A stretch of 64,000 nt of DNA from Oscillatoria princeps RMCB-10 (GTDB lineage: Bacteria; Cyanobacteriota; Cyanobacteriia; Cyanobacteriales; Oscillatoriaceae). A program made the translations under genes and the position numbers. The stretch covers positions 3,648 through 67,647 of the forward strand of contig JAHHHT010000012.1 of assembly GCA_019359235.1 (NCBI GenBank), read 5' to 3'. The notes below the pieces were generated by a model. The model was not told the origin of the DNA. It worked only from the letters and a program-made list of their open reading frames with translations, and ran no database searches. This document shows, one piece after another, positions 3,847 through 53,308 of this stretch. Each line of letters begins with the position of its first letter. Within the stretch, counting starts at the first letter, position 1.

Positions 3847-4686
3847 CTATTCCTCAGTCAGCAGAACTTGCACCCAGGGTGGGGGTGGCGGAATCGGGTT
3901 GCCCAGGCGTTCTAGCAGCAGACAAGCCGCCAGATGCACCGCGAACAGATAAATCACATTATTGAGCAACACAATTGCCAGAGCGAGCGCCTGAATCAGC
4001 GCCAGTTCTGGCTGAGCTAGCAAACCCAGCCGCTCAAAAATCCATTCAGTCAATTCAGTAATTTGGGAAGTAAGGTAAACCCAGAGGTCTTCACCCAGCA
4101 AGATCGAGAGCAGCCAAATGCGAAAAAAGACTCCGAAGGAGCCAACCAGAGTGCCCATAAAAATAGAGACGTTCCAGTTAGCACCGCGCCGCCACAGCCC
4201 GCCCAAAAGCACTCCCAACAGGCCAAAAGGCATGACAAACAGGATACTGCGCGTCGGGCCCATCAGCACCGCGAGCAGCAACCCAGAAACCAGCGCCCCC
4301 ATCCAGGCGGCTCGCGCTCCCCAGCGCAGGTAAAGGAGCGCGATCGGAACGGGAAAAAAGATCCGCAGCACCGGCCCGAGGGGAAAATAGTAATTGATCA
4401 GCCAAATCAGACTGGCGGTACTGGCCAGAAAGGCTGTTTCCACCACAATCAAAGGGGCAACATCCTTCACCCTCTGGTCGGAAACAGGTGCCGAGCCGGT
4501 CGAAGGGGACGCCGCTGCCGGTGGGTTGAGGTCATATTCCGGTATCCACTCACCGGCATCTGACTCCTCTGGCTGACTGACCGGCTCAGCAGCAGATTCA
4601 ACGCCTGCCGATGAGTGCTGCTGGTTTTCAGCTTCACCGGCACCAGCTGTTTCAGGCGAAAAGCTATCTCCCTGGGGATTGCTCAT
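3847..4686 (-). CDS. DUF2232 (YybS-like) multi-pass membrane protein
   Basis: 279 aa; acidic N-terminal tail then 5-6 hydrophobic helices; proline-rich C-terminus. Resembles the conserved cyanobacterial DUF2232 family. Confidence 0.55.
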   Translation of the reverse strand: MSNPQGDSFSPETAGAGEAENQQHSSAGVESAAEPVSQPEESDAGEWIPEYDLNPPAAASPSTGSAPVSDQRVKDVAPLIVVETAFLASTASLIWLINYYFPLGPVLRIFFPVPIALLYLRWGARAAWMGALVSGLLLAVLMGPTRSILFVMPFGLLGVLLGGLWRRGANWNVSIFMGTLVGSFGVFFRIWLLSILLGEDLWVYLTSQITELTEWIFERLGLLAQPELALIQALALAIVLLNNVIYLFAVHLAACLLLERLGNPIPPPPPWVQVLLTEE

Positions 4687-4860
4687 GCAGATTATAGGGC
4701 AGCCTCATTGGGCCCGCCCGGATTAAGACAGCCGCAGACAATTTCGAGCCGCAGCTCGGACGGGAATGCGACAGACGCAGACATCTACCATTATCTGCGT
4801 TTATCTGCGTTCATCTGCGGTTTTTAAATTAATCGCCGCCTAAAATCCAAAAACTGCCAT

Positions 4861-6803: not shown

Positions 6804-9800
6804 ATGAGCTCCCATCTGGATCAAATTCAAGCACTCATCTCCGACATTGACGGGGCGCTAGCGGCACCAGCGCCCCGCCTGCCTTGGATGGGAGATACTG
6901 CCAGCTTTCGCCGGCTCCTGGAGCGAATTCGCAACTATCTCGTCTGGCTGGAGGGCCAGGTGAGTGCGGGCGAGTCTTTTCTGCCACCGGCAGCGAATCA
7001 AAATCTGCGCGGCGCTGCCATCGAGCCGGTGCCGGCTGTCCCCTCCCCTGAAACGCCGGCTTGGGCCCAGCAGCTGCTGCAAGCGGTTGTGGGAGAGATG
7101 GCATCTGTGCGCTCTACCCTCGCGCAGCCAATACAGGCAGACTTGGCCGCCCTGCAACAGCAGCGGGACGCTCTGTTCAAAGAAATTCGCCAGTTGGAGG
7201 CTCAGCGACAGCACCAATACTCTCTGGTTCAGCAACAGGCTTCCCAGCAGCAAATTATTTCGGAATTTTTGCAGGCGTTAATGGGGCGCTTGCAGGAAAG
7301 CTTGACGGAGCAAGTGGCCCAGACGTTAGGCCATCTAGAGCAGCAATTTTTAACCGGATATGAATCGCCGCCGGTCGGGCAATCCCCGCTACAAGGGGCT
7401 GGCTACTCAACCTCAACAAGTCCGCTGCAGTTGCAAGGATCCAGCCGCCAAATGCACCCGCAAGAGCGCTTGGAGCGGATGCGGCTGCTGCAGCAAAAGA
7501 GCGACGAGCTGTTACTGACGCTGGACTCTACGCTCAAGGTGATGTTTGAAGCGCTGCTGCGGAATATTCACAGCTATGAGAAGTCTTTGGCCAGAGGGCT
7601 TGACAAAAGTTTCAATCCTGTTCCCGGAATTCAGCTAACAGAAATATCACCGCCGCCGCCACCTGAATTTATTATACCCGAAACCGACCGCAGCGAGTCC
7701 CGAAAGAACCTGCCACCGGCGGCGGCTGGCCCAACGCCAGACCCGGGCAGCTCGGTGAAATCCAACCGCCGCGCCGGTGCCGCTAAACCCAAACAGCCGA
7801 CTTCCGGGCTGCCCGCCCCACAGAGCAAACGGCAGCAGCCAGCCGCCGGCAACCGCACCGGAGCCACCGACACGGGGGCTTCCGACCGGCAAACTCCGGA
7901 AACACTTAACAGAGAACCTTCAGCGACAGAGAGTCCGCCGCAGCAAGAGGCGGCCCAAAACTTGCCGGGTTTGGGCCAAGCTGAGGCGGCGGAGATCGAA
8001 ACGCTGCTCAATCTGGACGTGGGGGCAACTGCTGCGCCAGCCCCATCAGAGCTAGCACCGGATGAGGATCTCAATGCCGTTCTTCAGCTGCTCAATGCCG
8101 AGCGCAATCCCTCTTCCGAGCGGGCTGAAGGAGGCGGCATTCCAGCCCGGTTGAGTGCCGGTGTTGCCTCTGCAGACTTCTCGCCGGATATCCACGAGCT
8201 TTATGCCAGTCTGTTTGGGGCTGAGGACGCCCCCGCCACTGCAGCGCCGGCAGCAGAGACTGCCACCGGCTCGCCGGTTCTGTTTGAAGAGGCACTGTTT
8301 GAGGGATTCCCGGATACGGCGGCTGTTGCCCCACCGGCACCCCAGCCAGAAAAATCTGTGACGTCTGTGACCCAGTCGCTCGAAGAGTTCTTATTTGATG
8401 GCGATTCAGCCGAAAGCACCCGCACGGGCTCCCTGAGGTTGGCAGATTTATTCGGGGAAACACCAGCAGAGCGGGAGAAGAATAGCACAAAAGAGTCAAT
8501 TAGTCAAGCGCCCAGTGCTGTAAGGGACCGGCCAGCCGCAAGCAGCACCGGCAGCGAGGATGACATATCCCTGAGCGAGCTTTTCGGAGAGCCAGAGGCA
8601 GGAGAAAGCAATCAGCAATCTGCCTTGAACCCTCAGCCTGGCGCGGCGCTCCACAAGTATGGGGCAAAGGGCTCTGAGGAGCAAAACCAGACCGCTGCCG
8701 ATCTCGCTTGGGAGACAGACAGCTATATCCCGGCATCGCCGGATGAGGATTTACTGCCAAACGTTGAAGAGGAGGGGGAGAGCCGGCTGCCAGCCTTCTG
8801 GATAGATGACAGCACCCTCGAGCAGCTTCGGGAGGATCTTTCGTTTGAACCCCGCTCCCAGGATTCAGCTGGCAGAACTGTTCGCCCCCCGCTTCCTGAA
8901 TTGATCGCACAGTCAGCCCCAACCGAGTCGGGCGCAGACGATTGGCTGGCTGAGCTGTCTGGAGAAAGCTCCCAGCTGCCGGACGCTACGCCAGAGCCAG
9001 AACCGCCGCCAGTTTTAGGGGACACGCCTTCGATGACGCTGGAAGAAGCGTTTGCCAGCTTAACGGAGGCAACGGCTCAGCCCTCACCGGCAGCAGTTAG
9101 CCCTAGCGATAGGGAATTAGCGATTGGCGATAGGGAATTAGCGGCGCGGAAGGCGCAGCGCGACCCAGGGCCAGCGCAACGGCCAGCCAGGATTTACAGC
9201 TCTTGGGAAGAGGCGGACTCACCAGATGTTTTGGATTGGAACGCTGTGGCGGCAACCCCTGAGCCCGACAGCGAGGTGTCGGCGCTCGACGATCTGTTTG
9301 CTAGCTTGACGGGAGAAGAGCCGGCACCATCTGAATTTGAGGGGCTGGACTTATTCGAGCCGTCTGGGGGAACGCTGGATGCGGACGCCACCGAGGAGCT
9401 GCGGGCAGCGGATCTCGACGATCTGTTTGCGGGCTTTGGTGAGGAAACCCCGACGCTCGCTGAGCCGTGGGCGCAACAGCCCTTAAAACCCCCCGCCCCC
9501 GACTCGGGGACAGAGGAAAAAAAAAAGGATTTAGAGGCGGCTGAGCTGCTGGCTTTTCTTGAGTCCGCCACAGCCGCACCGGCTTTGGGGAGGGAGGAAA
9601 GAACAGGGCCCGCAAAAGAGGGCTTTGGGCAGAAAGCCGCTGCCGCTGCCGGTGGAAAAACTGCGGGACAGGCATCTTCGCTGTCCGGTGCGCCATCCCC
9701 CGTTTTGGGGGAGAGCGAGTTCGGCCTTGCCCTCGACGGGGCTCAATCTCAGGGGAAGAGCGGCAGCGGTTCCCCACAAGTGGTGCCCTCTGAGGGCGAG

Positions 9801-18331: not shown

Positions 18332-21007
18332 TCAAACGATCGTGCCGTCGGAAAAGAATACCTGGAACTCCTCAAACGACAGGTCAATAAACCCATCGTT
18401 ATTCCTGTCCCTGGAACCTGCCGGCGCATCTACGCCCCAGGGATTAAACACGACAATGCGCTCAGCGTCCGAGTCAGTCACATAGACCTGGGTAATTGCG
18501 TAAGGGTGATTGGCAACTATCAAGCCGGCTGAATTAGCCGCACTTTCTCTGTCAGTAGAGGCCGCTACAAACCGGCCCGTATCAAAAGCTTGGTTTATCC
18601 GCTCAAACGTGAAGTCCGCAAAGGTGCCGGTGGCGCGGCTGTCTCCATTCCTAAACACATCCGCCTTGCGGGAAGTCAGCTGGGAGATCGCCTCAGAAAC
18701 ATCACCCCCTCGGCTAATCAATTCATAGCCATTTGTCGCGTCCCCTTCTTGCCACTGCTGCCACACTGCGTAAGCTTTTTCCAGCAGCGTTATCCAAATC
18801 GGTCGGTTATTCGGGTTGCTGGGAACCTCCAGATTTTTGTCCTTAGCGCCGTATATCTCGCCGGCGTACACTGCCACATCCTGATTCACTGTCACCCACT
18901 GCTCAGCGCCGTTTTCGTAGAAGCGCACGCCGTAGGTTTGGTCGCCGTTATCAAAGATTGCACCGGCAATCGCCTCACTCGATTTTCCTGGATTGTTCCC
19001 CGCCACCGGCCTGAACGTTGCGCCAGCAGCCGCAATCAAAAAGCTGTCCGCAAACTGGTTTTGATTCACCTGCGAAATTTGCGGCACATTTTCGCTGCCA
19101 TACAGCTGTCCTGTTAGCCGCTGAAGTTCCAAGTTGAAAACCCTGGAATCCCCACTGCCGTCTGTCGCCGTGTAGGGAGGATTGTAAGGCTGAACAATCC
19201 CGCGAAACCAGCGGTTAACAATCTCCTTAAACGGAGCGGTTTGTACGGCTCCTAGACTGTTCGCTATCTTCCCGGCATCCTGAACAACCTGTTCCGCAAT
19301 AAACGCTACATAGGGCGGTAAATCAAACTGCTTCTGATTCCCCACTAAGGCTTTTAAATCCTGCAACTCAGCTTCCGTGACGATATCATCGTCTGTCGCT
19401 CTGTCAAATATCTGCAACATGTCGTTGCGGCTTAATTGCCCATCCGCAGACAGGGTGCGGGCGTCTGTTCGCACTTGCTCATCTTCCAAGCTGTTCAAGT
19501 CGAGGGTTGGGTCTGACAGCGGTGTCGAAACAAGACGGGCGTTCAAAGTGTAACTTCCTGTGGCGTCTTCATTAAAGCTCGTCACGCGCACGATGTACTC
19601 AGTTCCCGCATCTGCAGTGAAGGTCACGGCAGAGTTGAGGTCGCCCCGCGCCCGACCAAAATCTTTGCTTTCCGCAACCGGCATGCCGGTGAGGGCGTCT
19701 ATCACTTGCAGATAAGTTTCAAACTGCCCAGAATTGGCGCTGATTTGCACAATTTGATCCGCAGAAACGCCCGTCAGCCGGTAGTCATCGCTGTAGGTTC
19801 CGGGACGAGTGGGGTTATCCAAGTCCGTGGTGGCGAGGGAGTTGCTGCGGGAGGAGGAGACGGCGAGAGAAGCAACGATGGGGCTGGACGCATCTGCAGT
19901 CAGGGTGAAATTGCCGGTGCCGGCAAGCTGTTTGGGATCGCTCGTCACGCGAATTGCATATCGCACGCCTTGCTGCGCGGTAAAATTGAGCGCGGAATTG
20001 CTGTCGCTGCCGGTGGGGATGGCTTCTCCTGTGAGGGCGTCCACCAGTTCCAGGCGGGGGCTGAATTCGGTGGAGGTGAGGGTGACTTCTACCTGCTGAC
20101 CGGCAGTTACCTCTCGCAGGATGTAGTCTTTGGCGAAAGTCCCCTCTTGCAGGGGGTTAACTTTGTCTTGAAACGACAAATTGCCAATAATCGTGTCATC
20201 GCCACGGATGAAGTCAGCCTCTTCAAAGCCGGTTAAGAAGCTGCCGTTTTTTAGGGTGCGGCGCGGTTCCCTGATTCCACTGGTAATATAGTGTTTGTAG
20301 GCTCCCTCGAAGTTGAAACCGGCTGCCTGCAAGTCTGGGCTTGACTCTAAGTACGCTCTGACATTAAAATTCTCTGTGGAGGCGCGTCCTTCGTTAATGC
20401 CGGTGCTTTCAAAGTGTTCTAGCAGCTGCCGGTTGCTGAGGCGGGCAGACCGCAAGTCCGGATTGGCATTCCGGTAAAACTGAACATCAAACGCTGGGGA
20501 AAAGGGGCGACTTTCCGCCAGGCCGAAGTTTTCCAGGTGATCTAAAAGCTGCCGTCCTTTCAAACCGGCAGCGAACAAGTCTGGATTGTTTGCGAGATAG
20601 TAATTGGGGTCAAAGAAGGGGGATAAGTTGCGCTGTTCCGCTAAGCCGGATAGCAGCAGGTGGTCGTAGGCTTGCTCCAGGTTGCCCTTAAAGGCTTGCT
20701 GCAAGTCGGGGTTGGCTTCTAAATAATATTCTAAATCGATAAAGGGTGAAAATTTGCGCCCCTCCTGCAAGCCAAAGTTTTGCAAGTGCTCGAAGAGCTG
20801 TTTGTTGGTGGTCAAGCCGGCTGCTTTCAGGTCGGGGTTGGCTTGCCGGTAGAAGTTGAGGTTGATGAGGGGGGAGAAGGGACGCCCTTCGTTGAGGCCA
20901 AACTGCTGGAAGTGGAGCCGGAGCTGTTGGTCAGCTGTCAGACCGGCTGCTGCTAAGTCTGGGTTGACTTGCCGGTAGTAATTGACATCGAATAAGTCTT
21001 TGGCCAC
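18332..21007 (-). CDS. multidomain calpain-like (peptidase C2-fold) protein: 6-7 N-terminal ~38-aa repeats, two pre-peptidase C-terminal (PPC) domains, C-terminal calpain-like domain with Ser replacing the catalytic Cys
   Basis: Calpain core alignment: FADSFLIAAAGA (calpain GDCWLLAA), IWITLLEKAYAVW (FWSALLEKAYAK), LIVANHPYAIT (LVKGHAYSVT), IVVFNPWG (IRMRNPWG). N-terminal repeats NYY(R/L)xANPDL..AGL...LxHxxxFGLxEGR. Confidence 0.8.
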   Translation of the reverse strand: MAKDLFDVNYYRQVNPDLAAAGLTADQQLRLHFQQFGLNEGRPFSPLINLNFYRQANPDLKAAGLTTNKQLFEHLQNFGLQEGRKFSPFIDLEYYLEANPDLQQAFKGNLEQAYDHLLLSGLAEQRNLSPFFDPNYYLANNPDLFAAGLKGRQLLDHLENFGLAESRPFSPAFDVQFYRNANPDLRSARLSNRQLLEHFESTGINEGRASTENFNVRAYLESSPDLQAAGFNFEGAYKHYITSGIREPRRTLKNGSFLTGFEEADFIRGDDTIIGNLSFQDKVNPLQEGTFAKDYILREVTAGQQVEVTLTSTEFSPRLELVDALTGEAIPTGSDSNSALNFTAQQGVRYAIRVTSDPKQLAGTGNFTLTADASSPIVASLAVSSSRSNSLATTDLDNPTRPGTYSDDYRLTGVSADQIVQISANSGQFETYLQVIDALTGMPVAESKDFGRARGDLNSAVTFTADAGTEYIVRVTSFNEDATGSYTLNARLVSTPLSDPTLDLNSLEDEQVRTDARTLSADGQLSRNDMLQIFDRATDDDIVTEAELQDLKALVGNQKQFDLPPYVAFIAEQVVQDAGKIANSLGAVQTAPFKEIVNRWFRGIVQPYNPPYTATDGSGDSRVFNLELQRLTGQLYGSENVPQISQVNQNQFADSFLIAAAGATFRPVAGNNPGKSSEAIAGAIFDNGDQTYGVRFYENGAEQWVTVNQDVAVYAGEIYGAKDKNLEVPSNPNNRPIWITLLEKAYAVWQQWQEGDATNGYELISRGGDVSEAISQLTSRKADVFRNGDSRATGTFADFTFERINQAFDTGRFVAASTDRESAANSAGLIVANHPYAITQVYVTDSDAERIVVFNPWGVDAPAGSRDRNNDGFIDLSFEEFQVFFSDGTIV

Positions 21008-27858: not shown

Positions 27859-30192
27859 GTGCTAAAAAATGGGAACGAAACGTTTCCCCCACCAACCAGC
27901 CAGCCGCCAAGTAAAACCACCCAGTTCAGCCCAATGACGCCCCTAGATTACACCTCAGAAACCCTCCTCGAACAACTTCCCCAGCTGAGTGACGAGCAGC
28001 TGAAACGGGAGTATTTGAATTCCCTGAAATGGACAGAACCCCTAGCGCAGATGTTAGCGCGTGCCGGTTCGGAAGAGCAAGCGCTGCGAGCGGTAAAACT
28101 AGCCCTAGAAGTGGACTGGCAACTGGGCGCAAAGCTAGCAGGAGCGGTCAAACCGGCATTTCAGGCGCAAACTGTAGAGCTAGTTGCTAATTTAGACATT
28201 CCCCAACACCTGAAGCTTAAACTGTTAGGCATCACCCGCTCTGACAGCGCCATCTCACCCGTGGCGCAAGCTTTGAGCGCGGAAGACTACGATATTCGCT
28301 CTAGCGCTGTCGAGGCATTAGGGGAAATCGGCTCAGAGGCGGCGGCGAGCCGGCTGCTGCAAGTTTTGGACTCGGAAAACTCCGGAATTCGCCAGAGCGC
28401 TTTCGAGGCGCTAGGGCAAATTGCCTCGCCAGCAACAGTACCGCTATTGCTGCTCGCCCTCAACGACGAAGACGTAGCAATCAGCGCACTGCTGGCGCTG
28501 GTGAAAATCAGCCCTGAAGCCGGCGCAACAGGATTGCGGCAAGTTTTAAACCATCAAACCGAGGCGGTTCGCCAAGAGGCGAAAAATCTCTTAACCGGCG
28601 GCGAAGAAATCAGCTCTCAGGCGTGGGTGGCGACGCTCGTGCGAGCCCTGAAAGATAGCGATTCAGAAGTTCGCATTTCTGCGGCAGTGGGGCTGCACGA
28701 AATCGGCTACACCTTGCGGAGAACCGGCGACTCGTCTGCAGTGGAACCCCTGATTCAAACTGTGCGCGACGAAAACCCAGAAGTTCGCCGGTGGGCGGCT
28801 GCAGCTTTAGGGCGAATTGGCACCGAAACAGCAGTGCCGGCGCTCATAGAAGCTCTCAGCGATGAAAACCCCAAAGTTCGCAGCTCCGCTGCTAGTGCGC
28901 TGTACGAAACCGGCTCAAGAGCCGCCGCGCCGGCGCTCACCCTAGCCCTGAACGATACCGAGCGTTTGGTTCGCGCTTCCGCTGCAGAAGCCCTCGGCAA
29001 AATTGGCTCCGAATCAGCCGTGCCCGATCTAGTGCGAGCTTTAAACGATGAAAACCATACCGTTCGCGAGAGCGCAGCTTCTGGGCTGGGAAAAATCGCC
29101 ACACAAGCTGCTGTCGAGGCGCTCATTCAAGCCCTCAGCGATCCAACCCCTCACGTTCGCGCCACCGCTGCAGTAGCCTTAGGAGAAACCGGAGCGGAAG
29201 CTGCAGTGCCGGCACTCTTGGAAGCCCTGAAAGACAGAGACTCTCAAGTTCGCGACAGCGCCGCAGTGGCATTAGGAAATATCGGCTCCTCAGAAGCCGT
29301 GCCGGCGCTCGTGCAAACCTTACTCGATGACATCGCTCTCGACTCTGGCTGCGATTTTAAAGTTCGTTCCGAAGCCGCCAAAGCCTTAGGAAAAATCGGC
29401 TCGGAAACCGCTGTGGCAGAACTCGTGCAAGCCTTGAACAACCCAGACGCTTTAGTTCGCGAACTCGCTGCCTATGCTCTGAGAAAAACTGCCACACTGG
29501 TAGCTGCACCGGCACTCCTGCAAGCGCTGAAAGATGAAGACTACCACGTTCGCGCCAGCGCTGCAGTAGCCTTAGGGAATATCGGCTCCGAAACCGCAGT
29601 GCCGGCGCTCATTGAAGCATTCAGCGACGAAAAATGGATGGTTCGTGAAGACGCAGCCGAAGCCGTGGGTAAAATCGGCGCTAAATCCGCAGTGCCGGCA
29701 CTGCAGCAACTTTTGAATGAGGACTCCCCCGAACTTCGCCGCAAGGCGGCTGAAGCCTTAGGGAAAATCGGTTCCGAAACTGCACTTCCCGCCCTGCTTG
29801 AAGCTTTGAGCGACGAACACTATAAGGTGCGTCATGAAGCTGCCGAAGCCTTACAGAAAATCGGCTCCTCTGCAGCTGTAGAAAAACTCCTGCACGCTTT
29901 GACCCACCACAATTCCAGGGTTCGCTGGAAAGCTGCCGAAGCCTTAGGCGAAATTAACTCGATCGCCGCCGTGCCGGCACTGCTGAAAGCCCTCAGCGAT
30001 GACGACTCTGACGTTTGCCGCAGTGCAGCCAAAGCCTTAGGTAAAATCGGCAGCCCTGAAGCTCTGCCGAGTCTGTCCCCACTCCTGCGCAGTGAGAACC
30101 GATTTGTAATTTCCGCCGCGCTCGATGCAATCTCTGCGATTCAAGAGCGTTGCGGTTATTACAATAGCGCCCTGGTAAGCTCGGATTTATGA
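27859..30192 (+). CDS. HEAT-repeat protein (PBS-lyase HEAT-like repeats, ~18 units)
   Basis: Iterated ~31-aa units LxALxDEdxxVRxxAAxALGxIGSExAVPAL throughout; unique ~150-aa N-terminal region. Confidence 0.8.
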   Translation: MLKNGNETFPPPTSQPPSKTTQFSPMTPLDYTSETLLEQLPQLSDEQLKREYLNSLKWTEPLAQMLARAGSEEQALRAVKLALEVDWQLGAKLAGAVKPAFQAQTVELVANLDIPQHLKLKLLGITRSDSAISPVAQALSAEDYDIRSSAVEALGEIGSEAAASRLLQVLDSENSGIRQSAFEALGQIASPATVPLLLLALNDEDVAISALLALVKISPEAGATGLRQVLNHQTEAVRQEAKNLLTGGEEISSQAWVATLVRALKDSDSEVRISAAVGLHEIGYTLRRTGDSSAVEPLIQTVRDENPEVRRWAAAALGRIGTETAVPALIEALSDENPKVRSSAASALYETGSRAAAPALTLALNDTERLVRASAAEALGKIGSESAVPDLVRALNDENHTVRESAASGLGKIATQAAVEALIQALSDPTPHVRATAAVALGETGAEAAVPALLEALKDRDSQVRDSAAVALGNIGSSEAVPALVQTLLDDIALDSGCDFKVRSEAAKALGKIGSETAVAELVQALNNPDALVRELAAYALRKTATLVAAPALLQALKDEDYHVRASAAVALGNIGSETAVPALIEAFSDEKWMVREDAAEAVGKIGAKSAVPALQQLLNEDSPELRRKAAEALGKIGSETALPALLEALSDEHYKVRHEAAEALQKIGSSAAVEKLLHALTHHNSRVRWKAAEALGEINSIAAVPALLKALSDDDSDVCRSAAKALGKIGSPEALPSLSPLLRSENRFVISAALDAISAIQERCGYYNSALVSSDL

Positions 30193-49298: not shown

Positions 49299-49437
49299 TG
49301 ATAGCAATAGACAATCAGTTTAGGACACTGGGATACGAAGTATAGACGTAGGGCAGGCGTCTCGCCTGCCCTCAATATCTCTGGGACAGGCGAGACGCCT
49401 GTCCTACGTCCTAACCTAAGTGGCTAGTGCTATATCT
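49299..49437. mobile_element. MITE family member nested between inverted CAGATAAACGCAGATGAA / TTCATCTGCGTTTATCTGCG repeats
   Basis: Core gacgtagggcaggcgtctcgcctgccc ... gggacaggcgagacgcctgtcctacgtc palindrome. The outer inverted repeat also occurs as a direct copy at 4795-4835. Confidence 0.55.
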
Positions 49438-49481: not shown

Positions 49482-52454
49482 TTATCTGGGCCACCATCGG
49501 GTGAGCCGGCTGAGGATGGATGGGCGATTGTGCCAAGCCTGATAAAACTCCGGGTAGGGCATAGTTTGGGCGCAGTGCCAGATGAGTTTGTAGCACTCCA
49601 GGAACCGCCTATAGAATCGCCTATAGTTTATGATTAAGCTTATAAATGATAACTCATCTTTCAAGGCTGTGACAACTTCTGCAAATTGATTGTCTCGGAG
49701 GATTTTCTTCAAGCTTTCTGCCGTTCGCTTGCGGGTGTCTTCATCCTGAGCTGACTTGATGAGTCGCACTAACCCCCGGATGGCTGTTTGATTGCCGATG
49801 CCAATTTTCCCTAAGCTATATGTTGCTTTTCTGCGGGTGTCTTCATCCGGAGCGAAATCGATGAGTCTCACTAACCCCTCGATGGCTGTTTGACTGCCTG
49901 GGTCAATTTCCCCTAAGCTTTCTGCCGCGAGCCAGCGGGTAAATTTATCCTCAGCTGACTCGACGAGTCCCTTTAACGCCCGGATTGCTTTTTGGCTGCC
50001 AGGGTCAATTTTCCCTAAGCTTTCTGCCGCTTTACAGCGGATAAAATCATACTGCTCTGATTTGATGATCTGCTCTAACGCCCGAATAGCTGTTTTACTG
50101 CCAGTGCCAATTTTACCTAAGCTTTCTGCCGCGAGCCAGCGGGTGCCTTCATTTTGATGTGACTCGAAAACTCGCACTAACGCCAGGATTGCTGTTTCAC
50201 TGTCTGGATGAATTATCCCTAAGTTTTCTGCCGCAATCCTGCGGGTTAATTCATCCTGATCTGAATCGATGAGTCGCATTAACCCCGTGATGGCTGTTTG
50301 ATTGCTGGTGCCAATTTTCCCTAAGCTATATGCCGCTTCTATACGGGTTAATTCATCCTGATCTGACTCGGTGAGTCGCACTAACCCCCGGATTGCTGTT
50401 TCACTGCCAGTGCCAATTTTTCCTAATGTATATGCTATTTCCCAGGGGGGAAATTCATCCTGTTCCGACTCGATGAGTCGCACTAACTCCTGGATGGCTG
50501 TTTCGTTGCCAGGGTCAATTTCCCCTAAGCTTTCTGCTGCTTCCCAGCTGGTGTGCTCACCCTGAACTGACTCAATGACTGGCCCTAACGCCCGGATGAC
50601 TGTGTAGTTTTCAATGTGCCATAAGCTTTCTGCCGCTCGCCTGCGGGTATATTCACCTTGAGCTGACTCGATGACTCGCTCTAACCCCCGGATGGCAGTT
50701 TCACTGCCGGGGTCAATTTTCCCTAAGCTATATGCCGCTCGCCAGCGGGTGTCTTCATCCTGAGCTGACTCGATGACTCGCACTAACGGCTCAATTGCCC
50801 TGTTGCGATCCGTCTCTAGTAAGGCAGCTTTAGCTCCCTCCTTAACCGGCTCGACAAAATCGCCAAAACCCCACTTGACAATCTGCTCCGCAATCTCCTG
50901 ACTCCACCGGCAATCCTTAAACTCGGCAATCCCAGCTGCGGCTAGGAAATACGCCCGATACTCATAAAACCCCCTGCCGATTTGTTCCATTCCAGAGAAT
51001 TTGCCACACCCATCCTTAAACTCCACCAGCGCTTTGATAAACGCCTCTTTCCGCTCCTTGGCCACATCCTCTCGCCCCAGCCAGAGCAAAATCACCTGCT
51101 TCCACTGGGCTGAAAAAATGCGGTAGGTGAGATCCCCCCAACTCTTCTTGGAAAGGGGGGCATTCAACCCCCCCTTTTTAAGGGGGGGCAGGGGGGGATC
51201 TTGATGATTCAGGAAAAAGCGCCAGTCATCTATCGCCAGCGCGGCGAAGTATTCCTGAAACGTGGTATGGTAGAAAGCGTAAACAGCTTCATCGGGACTT
51301 TCTGCCGCCAAGCCCACTTTGTTCAGCCAAGCCAGTTTAGTAACCGCCAGCTCATAAAGTTCTTCTCCCGGCTGCCCCAGGAAACGACAAACCCAACTGT
51401 GCTTGAGCCGGAACCGAGACTCCTTTTGGTCAATCGCCCACTTTGCCAACTCCCCAAGCTTCCGATTCAAATCTCTTCGCTGATTGGGGGTAATTGGAAA
51501 TTCCTTCTGTTTCCAATCATAGAACTTCTCCACAAATCCCTTGTAGAGTTTCGCCCGCGTATCTGGCAATCCCCCACGCTCTTGCCACAAACTCCAAGTT
51601 CCGCACAGCAGCGCCAACCGCAGGGGATTTTTCGCCAGATCCTTAATCCGCTCTTTGCCCGGTTCGTCTAGCGCCCGCCGCAACTTTTGCCCTAACTCTG
51701 GCTCGCGCCCAAACCACTTGGCGATCAACTGCCCCACTTGATCCGGATAACTAAATTCCAAACTGCGATAAATCTCAAATGTGTCCGCCAGCACATTGCG
51801 GTTGGCATCCCAGACATTCAGCCGGCAAGTCAGCACCACCCGCGCCGGCGCTATCCAGCCCCTGAGCTGGCTTTCGATAGCCGAGAGCGGTTCTCCTCCC
51901 ACCGGCATCTCATCCACCGCATCCAGCAGCAACCACACCCGCCCCTGCTTGCACAGCTGTTTGAACGCCGTTTTCAGCGCTTCCGTCACTTCCACCAGTT
52001 CCGGCAAATGCGCCAGCGCCGCTTTCAGCCATTTACTCAGTAAATACTCCTCCAGAAACTCCTGCTTAGAAGTAACCGCCGGCAAATCTGCCAGAGAAAT
52101 CAAAACCGGCAAATCCTCCGTAGTGTCAGACAGCCAAAACGCAATTTTGCGCAACAGGGTGGATTTTCCCGCCCCCGGTTCCCCAATAATAGCGATCCGC
52201 TTGCCCTTGCTTTTCCCTGTCCCCTTTTCCAGGACATCGCGCAAAAACTGCTCGTGCTCAAACCGCTGCTTTTCCTCGTATGCCGGCTCGTACAGGCGCG
52301 ATCCCCGCTCTGCCGAAATCTCCTCATTCGGCTTCTTCTCCTGTTTTTTGCGCTCCACCAATGCCAGCGGCACATGGATTTGGTCGATATCCAAATCTGT
52401 CCCGTGGTTGTGCAGAAGCGCATTGACAGTCAGCTTTTTCTCAGCCGCCAGCAT
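49482..52454 (-). CDS. NACHT-domain STAND NTPase with C-terminal HEAT-repeat array
   Basis: Walker A IAIIGEPGAGKSTLLRKIA; Walker B LLLDAVDE; downstream ~12 PBS-lyase HEAT-like units (DEDTRWRAAYSLGKIDPGSETAIRGL...). Confidence 0.8.
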   Translation of the reverse strand: MLAAEKKLTVNALLHNHGTDLDIDQIHVPLALVERKKQEKKPNEEISAERGSRLYEPAYEEKQRFEHEQFLRDVLEKGTGKSKGKRIAIIGEPGAGKSTLLRKIAFWLSDTTEDLPVLISLADLPAVTSKQEFLEEYLLSKWLKAALAHLPELVEVTEALKTAFKQLCKQGRVWLLLDAVDEMPVGGEPLSAIESQLRGWIAPARVVLTCRLNVWDANRNVLADTFEIYRSLEFSYPDQVGQLIAKWFGREPELGQKLRRALDEPGKERIKDLAKNPLRLALLCGTWSLWQERGGLPDTRAKLYKGFVEKFYDWKQKEFPITPNQRRDLNRKLGELAKWAIDQKESRFRLKHSWVCRFLGQPGEELYELAVTKLAWLNKVGLAAESPDEAVYAFYHTTFQEYFAALAIDDWRFFLNHQDPPLPPLKKGGLNAPLSKKSWGDLTYRIFSAQWKQVILLWLGREDVAKERKEAFIKALVEFKDGCGKFSGMEQIGRGFYEYRAYFLAAAGIAEFKDCRWSQEIAEQIVKWGFGDFVEPVKEGAKAALLETDRNRAIEPLVRVIESAQDEDTRWRAAYSLGKIDPGSETAIRGLERVIESAQGEYTRRRAAESLWHIENYTVIRALGPVIESVQGEHTSWEAAESLGEIDPGNETAIQELVRLIESEQDEFPPWEIAYTLGKIGTGSETAIRGLVRLTESDQDELTRIEAAYSLGKIGTSNQTAITGLMRLIDSDQDELTRRIAAENLGIIHPDSETAILALVRVFESHQNEGTRWLAAESLGKIGTGSKTAIRALEQIIKSEQYDFIRCKAAESLGKIDPGSQKAIRALKGLVESAEDKFTRWLAAESLGEIDPGSQTAIEGLVRLIDFAPDEDTRRKATYSLGKIGIGNQTAIRGLVRLIKSAQDEDTRKRTAESLKKILRDNQFAEVVTALKDELSFISLIINYRRFYRRFLECYKLIWHCAQTMPYPEFYQAWHNRPSILSRLTRWWPR

Positions 52455-52526
52455 AGCGCGGCAAACCTCGCGCCAGTCAATGGGAGGTAACTTTGCCCCC
52501 TCCTCCCCTCCCGGGGGCGACTGCAG

Positions 52527-52970
52527 TCAGGTGATATTGATGGGCGAGTTTTGGACAGTCCCTTGGATAAATAACGATTTTTCTTGCCTGTTCGTGAAGT
52601 TAGGGTTATTGATAGCTGGCTGTTGAGCTTTCAGCGTATCCACGACTTTTTGAACTTCTTGGATTTGTCGGGCAATTTCGGGATTTGGGTCTGCCTTCGC
52701 CGCTTCTGCCAACTCCCGCACCGCTCGCTCGAATTCAGGATTTGCCTTCGCTGCTGAATCCACCTCCAGCACAGCTTGACCAATATCCAAAGGTTGCTGG
52801 GGAGCGAGTTCGATAGCACTTGCTATATTTGGCAATAGCCTTTTTAACCCTGACCTAACATGTTCCCACTTTTCAATTACATTCTCCCCTATGCTTTCTC
52901 CAGCTTTCTCCAAAATTTTTGTCCCTATTCCAGTGCCGACAGCGATAGCAGCAAATGTTAGAGGTTCCAT
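52527..52970 (-). CDS. 147-aa ORF encoding a probable N-terminal domain of the NACHT protein, separated from it only by an in-frame TGA
   Basis: Same reading frame as 49482..52454; TGA, then 24 sense codons (LQSPPGGEEGAKLPPIDWREVCRA), then the annotated ATG. No family recognised for the 147-aa part. Confidence 0.5.
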   Translation of the reverse strand: MEPLTFAAIAVGTGIGTKILEKAGESIGENVIEKWEHVRSGLKRLLPNIASAIELAPQQPLDIGQAVLEVDSAAKANPEFERAVRELAEAAKADPNPEIARQIQEVQKVVDTLKAQQPAINNPNFTNRQEKSLFIQGTVQNSPINIT

Positions 52971-53214: not shown

Positions 53215-53308
53215 TGAGCAGCAATAGACAGTCAGTTTAGGGCACTGGGATACCAAGTATAGGCGTAGGGCAGGCGTCTCGCCTGCCCTTATGGCTAATG
53301 CTATAACT
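53215..53308. mobile_element. MITE family member (GCAATAGACAGTCAG ... CTAATGCTATAAC)
   Basis: Shares the gcgtagggcaggcgtctcgcctgccc core. Confidence 0.5.

Follow-up and report, generated by a model that had tools for sequence, protein, structure and literature searches.

The locus lies on the minus strand of the window, defined here as the whole 64,000-nucleotide stretch of Oscillatoria princeps RMCB-10 DNA that was analyzed. It comprises two open reading frames (ORFs), the short region between them, and an RNA element that begins at the stop codon of the upstream ORF. The features are listed in Table 1. The ORFs start 516 nucleotides apart (52970 − 52454 = 516 = 3 × 172), so their frames are identical. 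The 24 codons that follow the TGA contain no stop codon and no ATG, GTG, or TTG. Continuous reading is predicted to give a product of 147 + 1 + 24 + 990 = 1162 aa. This layout, two ORFs in one frame split by a TGA and 24 sense codons, had been described in a sequence-only reading of the locus and was confirmed on recomputation.

TGA is an ordinary stop codon here: of the 31 ORFs in the window that reach 250 aa, 13 end with it. Neither a terminator-like nor a promoter-like site was found between the two ORFs. The ATG at 52454, in the window and in its syntenic ortholog L003, is in frame 24 codons past the TGA and has a GAGG 11 nucleotides upstream. Independent initiation at this ATG could therefore occur at the window locus.

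Table 1. Features of the locus and their positions in the window.
Feature	Position	Strand	Remarks
Bell-like effector ORF	52530..52970 (52527..52970 including stop)	minus	147 aa
Q/N/G-rich C-terminal motif	52530..52610	minus	residues 121-147, NNPNFTNRQEKSLFIQGTVQNSPINIT; putative amyloid signaling motif, BASS-like
In-frame TGA (UGA, opal), then C	52527..52529	minus	proposed recoding site
Whole recoding element	52475..52529	minus	as matched by covariance model R1; 50.1 bits, E 8e-9
Sense codons from TGA to first ATG	52455..52526	minus	24 codons, LQSPPGGEEGAKLPPIDWREVCRA
Spacer	52519..52526	minus	8 nt, CUGCAGUC, consensus CUNNAGUC; length invariant (alignments A2 and A5 gap-free here)
Stem 1 hairpin	52495..52518	minus	GCCCCC 52518-52513; loop 52512-52501; GGGGGC 52500-52495
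A-rich linker	52488..52494	minus	AAAGUUA, consensus AAAGUUAA; kept even at synonymous positions (A2, A5)
CCUCCC	52482..52487	minus	complementary to GGGAGG of the stem 1 loop; proposed stem 2 of an H-type pseudoknot
NACHT-HEAT-NCC-H STAND NTPase ORF	49482..52454	minus	990 aa; opens at ATG 52454, ends at 49482
NACHT domain	~51708-52199		PF05729
HEAT repeats	~49656-50804
NCC-H domain	~49530-49613		Pfam

The effector and the NACHT-HEAT protein

The 147-aa protein carries an MEPLT motif at its N-terminus with a hydrophobic, Gly-rich helix, and its helical domain extends to approximately residue 116. M1, E2, and P3 are invariant in the family alignment (A1). The AF2 model is helical from residue 6 to 116 and of low confidence from 118 to 147, with pLDDT below 50 across the C-terminal motif. 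The protein has no match in Pfam or NCBIfam, and none was returned by PDB sequence and fold searches. Bell domains have been described with a MEPIS-type N-terminus (10.1101/2024.11.07.622273). A Bell-like identity for the 147-aa protein is suggested by its N-terminal motif, predicted helices, and gene neighborhood. Such a Bell-type effector domain probably targets the membrane.

A database search returned 40 homologs, all of them cyanobacterial, 97 to 160 aa long, and free-standing. Because the family also exists as free-standing small proteins, the terminated 147-aa product is probably functional in its own right. The protein also behaves as the N-terminal effector or signaling module of a STAND protein of ~1160 aa, as had been proposed. 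The free-standing family, the link to Bell/amyloid-motif NLRs, and the RNA hairpin/pseudoknot 8 nucleotides past the TGA had no place in the sequence-only reading.

The C-terminal motifs of the effector family are Q/N/G-rich and fall into several classes. Effectors that bear the RNA element are mostly Bell-like and helical, with TIR and alpha/beta-hydrolase types also present, and all end in a Q/N/G-rich motif. The motif-bearing segment of the window protein, residues 113-147, aligns with residues 1-34 of the NACHT protein of L008, a class-A relative, with 40% identity and an E-value of 5e-5 for this single comparison. The region past the TGA, from I16 on, aligns with residues 45-80 of the same L008 protein (E 6e-11). 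Judged from sequence, the canonical motif-NACHT N-terminus would be reproduced by the read-through product only.

The downstream ORF matches NACHT with 40.4 bits (cut-off 26.7) and HEAT_2 with an E-value of 7e-64, and its HEAT repeats show a 102-nucleotide tandem periodicity. The ORF is intact and retains both Walker motifs, GEPGAGKST (A) and LLLDAVDE (B). The last nine of the 24 codons before its ATG (IDWREVCRA) are part of a conserved pre-NACHT motif, DWxxxCRxM, and comparison with L008, L051, and L001 places ATG 52454 at the conserved internal Met of this motif.

The RNA element and its distribution

The element has no matching family in Rfam. The base after the TGA is C in ~90% of the sequences of alignment A2. 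Stem 1 closes a G-rich loop of 12 nucleotides (GGGAGGGGAGGA) and has a value of −13.7 kcal/mol by itself. Its pairing is 98.9% in 37 sequences and 99.3% in 89 distinct sequences. Both sides change at three of five pairs (UA 55/CG 34; CG 57/UG 21/GC 6/UA 2; GC 67/CG 15), and the observed values were reached by 0 of 500 shuffles. Swapping the stem 1 arms between loci gave p < 5e-5, although the loci are linked by descent and cassette exchange, so that this and the other p-values given here overstate their independence. G-U pairs are frequent in stem 1 (UG 21, GU 7) and would become A-C mismatches in the opposite strand, which indicates that the structure acts in the sense RNA. In the linker codons, TTA is the only codon used for Leu, and AAG is used for Lys with few exceptions.

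In almost every locus the stem 1 loop is complementary to sequence downstream, and covariation is seen in GGGGC/GCCCC, AGGC/GCCU, GAGC/GCUC, GGGAA/UUCCC, and GGCA/UGCC. Swap tests of stem 2 gave p = 0.0003 in a narrow window, 0.0015-0.003, and 0.04-0.09 in a wide window on the larger set, the last being counted as not significant. In a fixed register, stem 2 is 84-91% paired and shows little column-wise covariation. Stem 2 alone has a value of −10 to −11 kcal/mol. In the window, the pseudoknot has a competitor in a nested alternative fold (−18.7 kcal/mol), and the element region folds no better than shuffles (z = 0.47). Support for stem 2 and an H-type pseudoknot is moderate.

The cassette, composed of the TGA, the 8-nucleotide spacer, the hairpin, the linker, and the C-run, is present in 101 loci from genomes and metagenomes of many cyanobacterial genera (101 matches of R1 over 99 sources in the extended set). 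Carriers of the element include Nostoc linckia NIES-25, Calothrix PCC 7103, a Tolypothrix PCC 7601 plasmid, and, among complete genomes, AP018222.1. In 933 kb, R1 has 42 matches, every one of them exactly at the stop of a Bell-family gene. Among genome loci with the element, TGA is the stop in 40 of 40, and the downstream ORF is in frame 0 in 35 of 35. At loci without the element, the stop is TAA (28), TAG (5), or TGA (5), and the downstream frames are distributed 10/8/10. This arrangement at the TGA junction far exceeds chance. The TGA is also present in the window, in L036, and in three loci matched by the covariance model only, and no sense-codon, TAA, or TAG variant occurs at the junction among the ~100 element loci. 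Comparison with orthologs, as the sequence-only reading had advised, bears this out: L003, from another assembly, has 88% nucleotide identity over 2.7 kb and keeps the same TGA and 3' RNA element.

The cassette is modular. Upstream of it are Bell, TIR_2 (E 4e-16), and DUF676/PGAP1-like hydrolase domains, and downstream are NB-ARC (28 of 41), NACHT (8 of 41), PsbP-like (3), and CHASE2 (1) proteins. The frame-0 extension past the TGA is at least 100 codons long in 40 of 41 loci and at least 200 in 37 of 41. Across genomes and metagenomes, the DWxxxC motif precedes the first start codon in 13 of 13 NACHT extensions. The FVGR (hhGRExE-like) motif does so in 44 of 59 NB-ARC extensions, and in the remaining 15 a GTG or TTG lies a few codons ahead of it. 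The first ATG, GTG, or TTG of several loci is at or past the Walker A motif (P-loop). Variation by codon position is 6/7/6 at codons 1-14 past the TGA, which hold the RNA element, and 6/3/13 at codons 15-33, ahead of any start. The latter is a coding signature.

Proposed read-through and competing explanations

The TGA is real and, judged from its sequence setting, looks deliberate. The explanation preferred here, with a probability of about 0.68 on computational grounds, is programmed read-through of the UGA, by which the gene would make both a free effector and an effector-motif-NLR fusion. It is one of three options that the sequence-only reading had offered; conservation argues strongly against the other two, a nonsense mutation and a sequencing error. 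In the window alone, a lone TGA in an open frame of 1162 codons does have the look of a fresh mutation in a once-continuous effector-NACHT gene, now a pseudogene or a decaying two-part protein. The same TGA, however, is found in the independent assembly of a related organism and in ~100 loci with varied effectors and NTPases, the neighboring RNA element is kept with compensatory changes, and the 990-codon NACHT ORF is intact together with its Walker motifs. The probability of such a mutation or of an assembly error is close to nil. Dedicated decoding of the UGA, as selenocysteine through a SECIS-like hairpin or by an opal-suppressor tRNA, would make mainly the full-length fusion. In bacterial SECIS elements the UGA is followed within ~10 nucleotides by a conserved hairpin inside the coding sequence. 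The spacing here resembles this geometry and the conservation of the TGA is absolute. Dedicated decoding is nevertheless highly improbable: no homolog has Cys or another sense codon at the site, which is a variable linker with no redox motif, the hairpin loop appears to be paired with downstream sequence and so would not be free for SelB, and no suppressor tRNA was found in the window. Cyanobacteria are reported to lack the Sec-decoding trait, and a 2016 survey names them only for Prochlorococcus strains with an orphan SelD (PMC5029168).

The ORFs may instead be two separate genes, with the NLR translated by re-initiation or from an internal start (ATG 52454 here, a non-canonical codon elsewhere) and the hairpin serving as a regulatory, processing, or stability element, such as a coupling device, an RNase site, or a protein-binding site. 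The GAGG ahead of the ATG in the window and L003 fits this explanation, as do the free-standing small homologs (40 of 40), the separate annotation of such pairs in RefSeq (for example, on a Tolypothrix PCC 7601 plasmid), and the tiny gaps or overlaps that are the published norm for Bell/NLR pairs (10.1101/2020.01.06.895854). Independent initiation leaves the constant frame and the constant TGA unexplained, however, and no start codon is shared family-wide. The NTPase motifs lie ahead of the first start in most extensions, a coding-type substitution pattern precedes any start codon, the first start of several loci is at or past the P-loop, and ATG 52454 itself falls on a conserved internal Met. 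Among orthologs, separate genes with start signals of their own occur only in class A, which lacks the element and in which the NLR has its own ATG and its own N-terminal copy of the effector's C-terminal motif; window-type loci do not show this, and an independently initiated NLR would lack the signaling motif. Separate genes are accordingly considered unlikely. A DNA-level recombination junction that shuffles effector and NLR modules, with the in-frame layout as a by-product, is quite improbable as the primary role of the element. One cassette does join three effector types to at least four types of downstream protein, the post-TGA sequences of the window and L003 are near-identical while their effector C-termini diverge, and the element shares homology with class-A NLR coding sequence over its 3' half. 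Such a junction does not explain the fixed 8-nucleotide distance from an invariant TGA, the frame conservation, or G-U pairs that are tolerated in sense-strand RNA only. It is also compatible with read-through, and the cassette may be both.

Under programmed read-through, the Bell-like and NACHT-HEAT genes would form one recoded cistron. The majority of ribosomes would stop at the UGA and release the free 147-aa effector with its amyloid-type motif. In a minority, the UGA would be decoded by a near-cognate tRNA, most likely tRNA-Trp, and translation would continue in frame. Read-through would be aided by the weak UGA-C context, by the stable GC-rich hairpin that starts exactly 8 nucleotides downstream, at the point where mRNA enters the ribosome, and by the probable H-type pseudoknot between the G-rich loop and the CCUCCC past the A-rich linker. 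The 1162-aa Bell-motif-linker-NACHT-HEAT fusion would be the sensor. Its NACHT-HEAT part may sense a trigger and oligomerize, and the clustered motifs may then nucleate an amyloid fold that recruits the abundant free Bell-motif protein. The free and fused motifs would be identical because both come from the same codons. The recruited Bell protein would lead to membrane damage or abortive infection, consistent with a putative role in defense.

Comparison with known systems

Two-gene amyloid signaling clusters of Bell-domain/BASS proteins and NLRs are known from filamentous bacteria (Dyrka et al., 10.1101/2020.01.06.895854; Bab/Agp, 10.1101/2024.11.07.622273). As at the window locus, the effector of these clusters is small, N-terminal, and helical; it begins with MEP..., its first helix is hydrophobic, and it ends in a short Q/N/G-rich motif. 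A collinear NLR with repeats, of the NACHT or NB-ARC type, lies next to it, and the taxa are the same (Nostoc, Calothrix, Microcystis, and Tolypothrix). Close relatives of the window protein belong to canonical pairs, where the motif recurs at the N-terminus of the NLR. The window-type NLR differs: it has neither its own motif nor a conserved start, and the two ORFs are instead joined by a structured RNA and an in-frame TGA that never varies. Because the published screens selected for a motif at the NLR N-terminus as annotated (10.1101/2020.01.06.895854), they would miss the window-type class. Neither read-through nor stop codons are mentioned in 10.1101/2020.01.06.895854 or 10.1101/2024.11.07.622273.

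Viral read-through with a 3' structure is represented by MuLV gag-pol (UAG, 8-nucleotide spacer, pseudoknot) and by the UGA-C and stem-loop of alphaviruses and coltiviruses (Firth et al. 2011, PMC3159437). The likenesses are a putatively leaky UGA with C as the next base (CUA or CUG in many cases), an 8-nucleotide spacer, a stable GC-rich stem, a probable H-type pseudoknot topology with an A-rich loop, and an expected fixed ratio of a short to a C-terminally extended product with a common N-terminus. The viral cases involve eukaryotic ribosomes and eRF1, whereas those described here would involve the bacterial 70S ribosome and RF2 on chromosomal and plasmid genes. The cyanobacterial element is also much smaller than the alphavirus structures, and its function is putative.

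On bacterial ribosomes, two proteins with a common N-terminus arise from one reading frame in bacteriophage Q-beta coat/A1, where Trp is inserted at a leaky UGA, and in E. coli dnaX tau/gamma, where a downstream hairpin is stimulatory. The dnaX event is a −1 frameshift and not read-through, and Q-beta has, to our knowledge, no dedicated 3' structure. We know of no established structure-stimulated stop-codon read-through in a bacterial cellular gene, and a literature search found no case.

All-in-one bacterial NLRs with an N-terminal effector include Avs2/Avast2 and bNACHT proteins, with a MEPIS-type N-terminus (10.1101/2024.11.07.622273). The read-through product would match them exactly, with a Bell-type N-terminal domain, NACHT, and repeats. 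They differ in that each is encoded by one uninterrupted ORF, makes no free effector, and has no amyloid motif separating its domains.

The two ORFs of the window and their junction

The split effector-NTPase locus of the window is real and no defect. It is a member of a conserved class in which an amyloid-motif effector is connected to an NLR-type NTPase by a UGA codon and a structured RNA. The features of the locus are listed in the following table. The element named throughout consists of a conserved hairpin (stem 1) and a possible pseudoknot (stem 2) located 3' of the TGA.

Features of the window locus, from the effector ORF through the junction to the NTPase ORF
Feature	Position	Strand	Remarks
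Bell-like effector ORF	ATG 52970 to TGA 52529-52527	minus	147 aa
Post-TGA linker, 24 codons, LQSPPGGEEGAKLPPIDWREVCRA	52526-52455	minus	contains no stop and no ATG, GTG, or TTG
Spacer CUGCAGUC	52526-52519	minus	
Stem 1, 5' arm GCCCCC	52518-52513	minus	
Loop GGGAGGGGAGGA	52512-52501	minus	
Stem 1, 3' arm GGGGGC	52500-52495	minus	
Linker AAAGUUA	52494-52488	minus	
Stem 2, 3' arm CCUCCC (putative)	52487-52482	minus	
STAND NTPase ORF	ATG 52454 to 49482	minus	990 aa; same frame as the 147-aa ORF

The 990-aa ORF encodes a NACHT-clade STAND NTPase with C-terminal repeats. In Pfam it matches NACHT PF05729 (40.4 bits against a cut-off of 26.7), eight HEAT_2 stretches (E 7e-64), and a C-terminal NCC-H domain (E 2e-16). 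Walker A (GEPGAGKST) and Walker B (LLLDAVDE) are both intact. The sequence-only reading had described two ORFs sharing a frame, split by one TGA, with a NACHT-HEAT protein downstream, and the ORF and Pfam results agree with that account. Its suggestion of a recent nonsense mutation or pseudogene does not hold, because the ORFs are intact and the stop and element are kept in an orthologue and in about 100 loci. The orthologue compared (L003, an uncultured Oscillatoria contig) carries the same TGA between both ORFs, so the stop is no artefact either. It is syntenic with the window, with 88% identity across 2.7 kb spanning both ORFs, and its element matches that of the window except for two substitutions within the hairpin.

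The effector begins with MEPLTFAAIAVGTGIGTK, and M1, E2, and P3 are invariant across 27 family members in the small-protein alignment. The AF2 model of the window effector (pLDDT 66.8) has helices at residues 6-116. Members of the family share the MEP start, a hydrophobic Gly-rich helix 1, and a helical body, followed by a C-terminal tail of low AF2 confidence that is rich in Q, N, and G and in hydrophobic residues that alternate. Among 5.8 billion proteins searched, 40 homologues were identified, each 97-160 aa in length and none fused to an NTPase. Those with organism labels are from filamentous or colonial cyanobacteria. The small protein matched no Pfam or NCBIfam family, Foldseek of the AF2 model against the PDB returned nothing at E ≤ 0.001, and a PDB profile search with the family gave only spurious WD40 and coiled-coil matches. 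The same description has been given for Bell-domain effectors that end in a bacterial amyloid signalling sequence (BASS) (10.1101/2020.01.06.895854; 10.1101/2024.11.07.622273), and a 'MEPIS' N-terminal motif is highlighted for Bell domains in the latter. With its predicted helices, MEPIS-type start, and hydrophobic helix 1, the window protein resembles, by sequence motif and prediction, a Bell domain, for which a helical N-terminal region of ~80-100 aa is expected.

When the Bell profile (alignment A1 of the small-protein family, positions 23-48) is compared with designed WD40 propellers and with 2ymu, a WD40 protein of Nostoc punctiforme, the summed E is 1e-16. The match is composed of many weak repeats of one segment, with no single stretch significant. 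We take this WD40-blade-like segment to be the consensus ALWDKTGQFLVTLKKHS. The resemblance may be due to chance or may be a remnant of exchange with NLR WD40 repeats.

Several repeats are present in and around the locus. The HEAT region (49686-50897) is a tandem array with a period of 102 nt (34 aa) and at least eight copies with a DNA identity of 61-75%, which is typical of fast-diversifying NLR repeat sensors. Direct repeats of 70 nt flank the effector-NACHT unit (49303-49372 and 53220-53289) and are 94% identical. Their palindromic core GTAGGGCAGGCGTCTCGCCTGCCCT has five copies in the window (2309, 43267, 49348, 49383, and 53265) against a chance expectation of 0. It looks more like a palindromic repeat dispersed through intergenic regions than a locus-specific feature. 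Elsewhere in the window, ARAGORN places a tRNA-Ser(CGA) at 28352-28439 (minus strand), inside and antisense to a 777-aa ORF (27859-30192). One of the two is probably spurious.

Two architectures and a conserved element

A scan of one genome per species identified 299 places encoding relatives of the small protein, of which the best 80 were analysed. The loci can be sorted into two classes. In class A, the small gene stops at TAA or TAG, rarely at TGA, and the NLR lies in any frame, has its own ATG, and begins with a copy of the C-terminal motif of the effector. An example of such a motif pair is ...KLADKIGQVVMPGGTGNIENMSF in the small protein and MSEDSGKFADKIGAYAAPGGQVNIGTQ... in the NLR. Class A is the published two-gene Bell/BASS-NLR arrangement. 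In class B, which includes the window, the stop is TGA and the frame is open straight through into the NTPase, which lacks both a nearby start codon and a motif of its own.

The two classes differ in the presence of the element. In the genome set, loci with the element stop at TGA in 40 of 40 cases, and the downstream ORF is in frame 0 in 35 of 35. Loci without it stop at TAA (28), TAG (5), or TGA (5), and their downstream ORFs are spread over frames 0, 1, and 2 (10, 8, and 10). Of the five TGA loci that R1, the covariance model of the element, does not match, two still bear an altered copy, truncated in L014 and variant in L051. Homology to the coding sequence of class-A NLRs extends over the 3' half of the element (GGGCAAAAACAGTTAACTCCCAC aligned with GGACAAAG, a three-position gap, and TTAACTCCCAC), which indicates that the two architectures can interconvert.

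The class-B layout is TGA-C, an 8-nt spacer (CTNNAGTC), a hairpin with 5-7 GC-rich pairs and a G-rich loop, AAAGTTAA, and YCCC. The base after the TGA is C in ~90% of element sequences (context consensus CUNNAGUC), and the spacer is invariably 8 nt long.

Stem 1 is 99.3% paired over 89 distinct sequences, with both-sided changes at three of five pairs. The variable pairs are U-A (55) or C-G (34) at one position; C-G (57), U-G (21), G-C (6), or U-A (2) at another; and G-C (67) or C-G (15) at the third. None of 500 shuffles matched the observed values, and every slid register collapses. In a smaller set of 37 sequences, 98.9% is paired. Swapping arms between loci abolishes pairing (p < 5e-5), where this p-value and those for stem 2 overstate independence because the loci are related by descent. 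On the opposite strand the many G-U pairs would become A-C mismatches, which places the structure in the sense RNA. A conserved stem-1 hairpin at the stop is almost certainly real.

For stem 2, the loop is complementary to the downstream C-run in nearly all loci. Covarying variants are GGGGC/GCCCC, AGGC/GCCU, GAGC/GCUC, GGGAA/UUCCC, GGCA/UGCC, and, in the window, GGGAGG/CCUCCC. In the swap test, p is 0.0003 when the target window is narrow and 0.0015-0.003 for the first set; for the larger set and a wide window it is 0.04-0.09. Column-wise covariation in a fixed register is slight because the register slides within the G and C runs. From the complementarity and the covarying variants, an H-type pseudoknot whose third loop is A-rich is plausible, and the chances that it forms are put at about even. 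Folded alone, the window junction gives no signal (z = 0.47) and has a nested alternative fold, so that the structure is apparent only by comparison across loci. An Rfam scan of the junction returned two chance matches far under threshold and no family.

Covariance model R1 gave 42 matches in 933 kb, all exactly at the stop of a Bell-family gene. Pooled over all sources, the model identified 101 copies, three of which fall outside the search pattern. These three too lie on a TGA that closes a Bell gene, with an NB-ARC ORF downstream. A metagenome scan with a DNA pattern blind to the upstream protein found 94 stretches, 55 with a paired stem. All 55 end an ORF with a Q/N/G-rich C-terminus, and the upstream protein belongs to the Bell family in 46. 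The others are DUF676/PGAP1-like alpha/beta hydrolases, TIR_2 (E 4e-16), and other short or Bell-like helical ORFs. Fungal amyloid signalling controls alpha/beta-hydrolase effectors, and BASS motifs have been reported on TIR domains (10.1101/2024.11.07.622273).

Two groups of matches were rejected. About 20 metagenome pattern matches (for example L084, L087, L099, L111, and L112; mostly from Ga0209679) show no stem pairing and share a LKSRKLLRPKLS translation, and are an unrelated repeated sequence. An R1 match at window position 20145-20216 (minus strand, E 0.07) lies inside an 891-aa ORF (18332-21007) and is due to chance, since its TGA is out of frame.

Candidate read-through and alternative explanations

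On comparative evidence, the element is proposed to programme stop-codon read-through, with a probability of roughly 0.68. Found together at these loci are a putatively leaky stop with its 3' context, an in-frame coding ORF without a start, and a covarying structure ~8 nt downstream, a combination that points to a read-through signal. In E. coli, UGA-C is an intrinsically poor site of termination by RF2, and the near-cognate tRNA that usually reads UGA is tRNA-Trp. The first stem-1 pair is 8 nt past the stop, and the hairpin or pseudoknot would sit at the mRNA entrance while the UGA is in the A site. This stop-to-structure geometry is that of MuLV and alphavirus-type read-through stimulators (PMC3159437), and is also that of frameshift stimulators.

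The main rival is that the NLR is translated independently or by re-initiation and the hairpin has another role. For the window alone this may be the case, because an ATG is on hand. Across loci, independent initiation leaves unexplained the invariant TGA, the shared frame, the starts missing elsewhere, and the missing motif. Of 41 genome loci, 40 have a frame-0 extension of 100 codons or more and 37 one of 200 or more, and the first ATG, GTG, or TTG is often at or past Walker A (L076, L061, and L046). The FVGR..EL motif, which corresponds to the hhGRExE motif of the NB-ARC domain, is upstream of the first possible start in 44 of 59 NB-ARC extensions, and the DWxxxC motif is upstream of it in 13 of 13 NACHT extensions. 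In 12 NB-ARC loci, variable columns in codons 15-33 after the TGA are distributed 6/3/13 over codon positions 1/2/3, which is a coding signature. The distribution in codons 1-14, which hold the RNA element, is 6/7/6.

The ATG of the window itself, at 52454, is the conserved internal Met of DWxxxCRxM(L/M) (compare IDWQKICREMM in L008 and DDWQRICREMM in L051). In the class-A NACHT protein encoded at L008, residues 1-34 are matched by the effector C-terminus of the window (40% identity, E 5e-5) and residues 45-80 by its post-TGA sequence from linker Ile-16 onward (E 6e-11). By these two alignments, the read-through product would recreate the canonical motif-NACHT N-terminus. The 27-aa C-terminal motif of the effector is absent from the N-terminus of the NACHT ORF of the window. 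In class-A loci of the same small-protein family, such a motif is repeated at the NLR N-terminus, as expected of a BASS (~20-25 aa). A product started at ATG 52454 would be without the motif, and the window NLR would gain it only through the read-through product.

The element could also be a DNA-level shuffling junction, which is compatible with read-through and does not exclude it. Selenocysteine insertion at the UGA, as in a SECIS-type gene, is very unlikely: none of the 101 element loci has Cys or another sense codon at the site, the peptide around it is a variable linker, and the Sec-decoding trait was reported as undetected in Cyanobacteria (PMC1794560). The window contains no suppressor tRNA, and reassignment of TGA is dismissed, as 13 of the 31 window ORFs with 250 aa or more end in TGA. 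Sequence inspection led to the rejection of translational bypassing as in T4 gene 60: the linker does contain a matching landing codon (ACC in the window and AAC in loci of the Nostoc type), but reading from it is in the wrong frame and meets a stop only a few codons on. Frameshifting has no place where the long ORF is already in frame 0. An intrinsic terminator was discarded as well: AAAGUUA follows the hairpin instead of a U-run, and a scan found no promoter-like or terminator-like site between the two ORFs of the window. Longer Bell-family ORFs (L059, L071, and the 422-aa ORF of L035) are true HEAT, TPR, or low-complexity fusions without the element, and are uninformative on the residue that replaces the stop.

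With read-through of a minor fraction of ribosomes, the major product would be the free Bell-motif effector and the minor product a Bell-motif-NACHT-HEAT fusion. The activated fusion would oligomerise and bring copies of the motif together, which would seed the amyloid fold and draw in free effector. The activation scheme is the same as in the two-gene Bell/BASS-NLR model, except that both motif copies come here from the same codons. A broader proposal is that a modular and portable cassette (UGA-C, 8-nt spacer, GC-rich hairpin or pseudoknot) programmes read-through by the bacterial ribosomes of Cyanobacteria. Two products would then come from one ORF in constant proportion: a death effector that is free and abundant (Bell, TIR, or hydrolase, always with an amyloid motif) and an effector-motif-NLR sensor that is rare. 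This proposal is given slightly better than even odds. Since effector and sensor would come from one ORF, the amyloid-templating motif would necessarily be identical in both.

In viruses and eukaryotes, stimulation of read-through by an RNA structure 3' of the stop is a textbook mechanism. To our knowledge, very few bacterial examples of structure-stimulated read-through exist, and in none of them does a cellular gene carry a conserved structure dedicated to it. If the proposal is true, the element is, as far as known, the first such programmed signal in bacterial cellular genes, and the loci represent a third NLR amyloid signalling architecture beside the two-gene and all-in-one forms. At 45 nt and ~100 loci, it would be a compact and readily testable case of recoding. 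The class of UGA/element-joined loci is apparently not previously described. Full-text literature searches, which have incomplete coverage, turned up no description of read-through for Bell or bacterial NLR systems, and it is unmentioned in 10.1101/2020.01.06.895854 and 10.1101/2024.11.07.622273.

In the published Bell/BASS model, sensor and effector must bear the same motif. Read-through would guarantee this identity and prevent cross-talk among the many paralogous pairs of a genome, and would fix a low sensor-to-effector ratio suited to amplification. In a published screen, half of the motifs were left unpaired (10.1101/2020.01.06.895854), and read-through could explain some of the Bell C-terminal motifs that lacked a partner there.

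Partners, copies, and variants of the element

Among the 41 in-frame extensions of the genome set, 28 are NB-ARC, eight are NACHT, three are PsbP-like with a transmembrane helix, and one is CHASE2. The PsbP-like and CHASE2 partners are not NLRs. At L175, on a plasmid of the laboratory strain Tolypothrix sp. PCC 7601 (NZ_CP064885.1, 4501-5601), the element joins the Bell gene to a 'PsbP-related protein', which RefSeq lists as a separate gene with a start 90 nt past the TGA. This is one RefSeq example of a wider effect, in which gene callers split element loci and assign arbitrary truncated starts to the NLRs. At L176, on Nostoc sphaeroides plasmid p1, transposase-like ORFs downstream of the element disrupt the copy.

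Three metagenomic contigs contain two Bell-TGA-element units each: L081 (4004 and 9648), L094 (6330 and 10408), and L166 (5186 and 8113). Most of these units run into long NB-ARC-type frames, and each pair looks like the outcome of a local duplication, in tandem, of the entire recoded unit.

The variant at L051 (Hormoscilla, ~7439-7500) has TGA CTGAAGTCG, a CCTCA-GGA-TGAGG hairpin, and an A-rich run, and is in frame with a 993-codon NACHT extension. It was missed by model R1, and the element family is wider than that model. Two Brasilonema-type loci, L064 (7421-7429) and L133 (~4686-4694, minus strand), have TGA CTG TAG where TGA CTG CAG is found elsewhere. The element and a 500-aa NB-ARC frame are still present after the second stop. 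This double stop could represent a pseudogene, double read-through, or one organism sampled twice.
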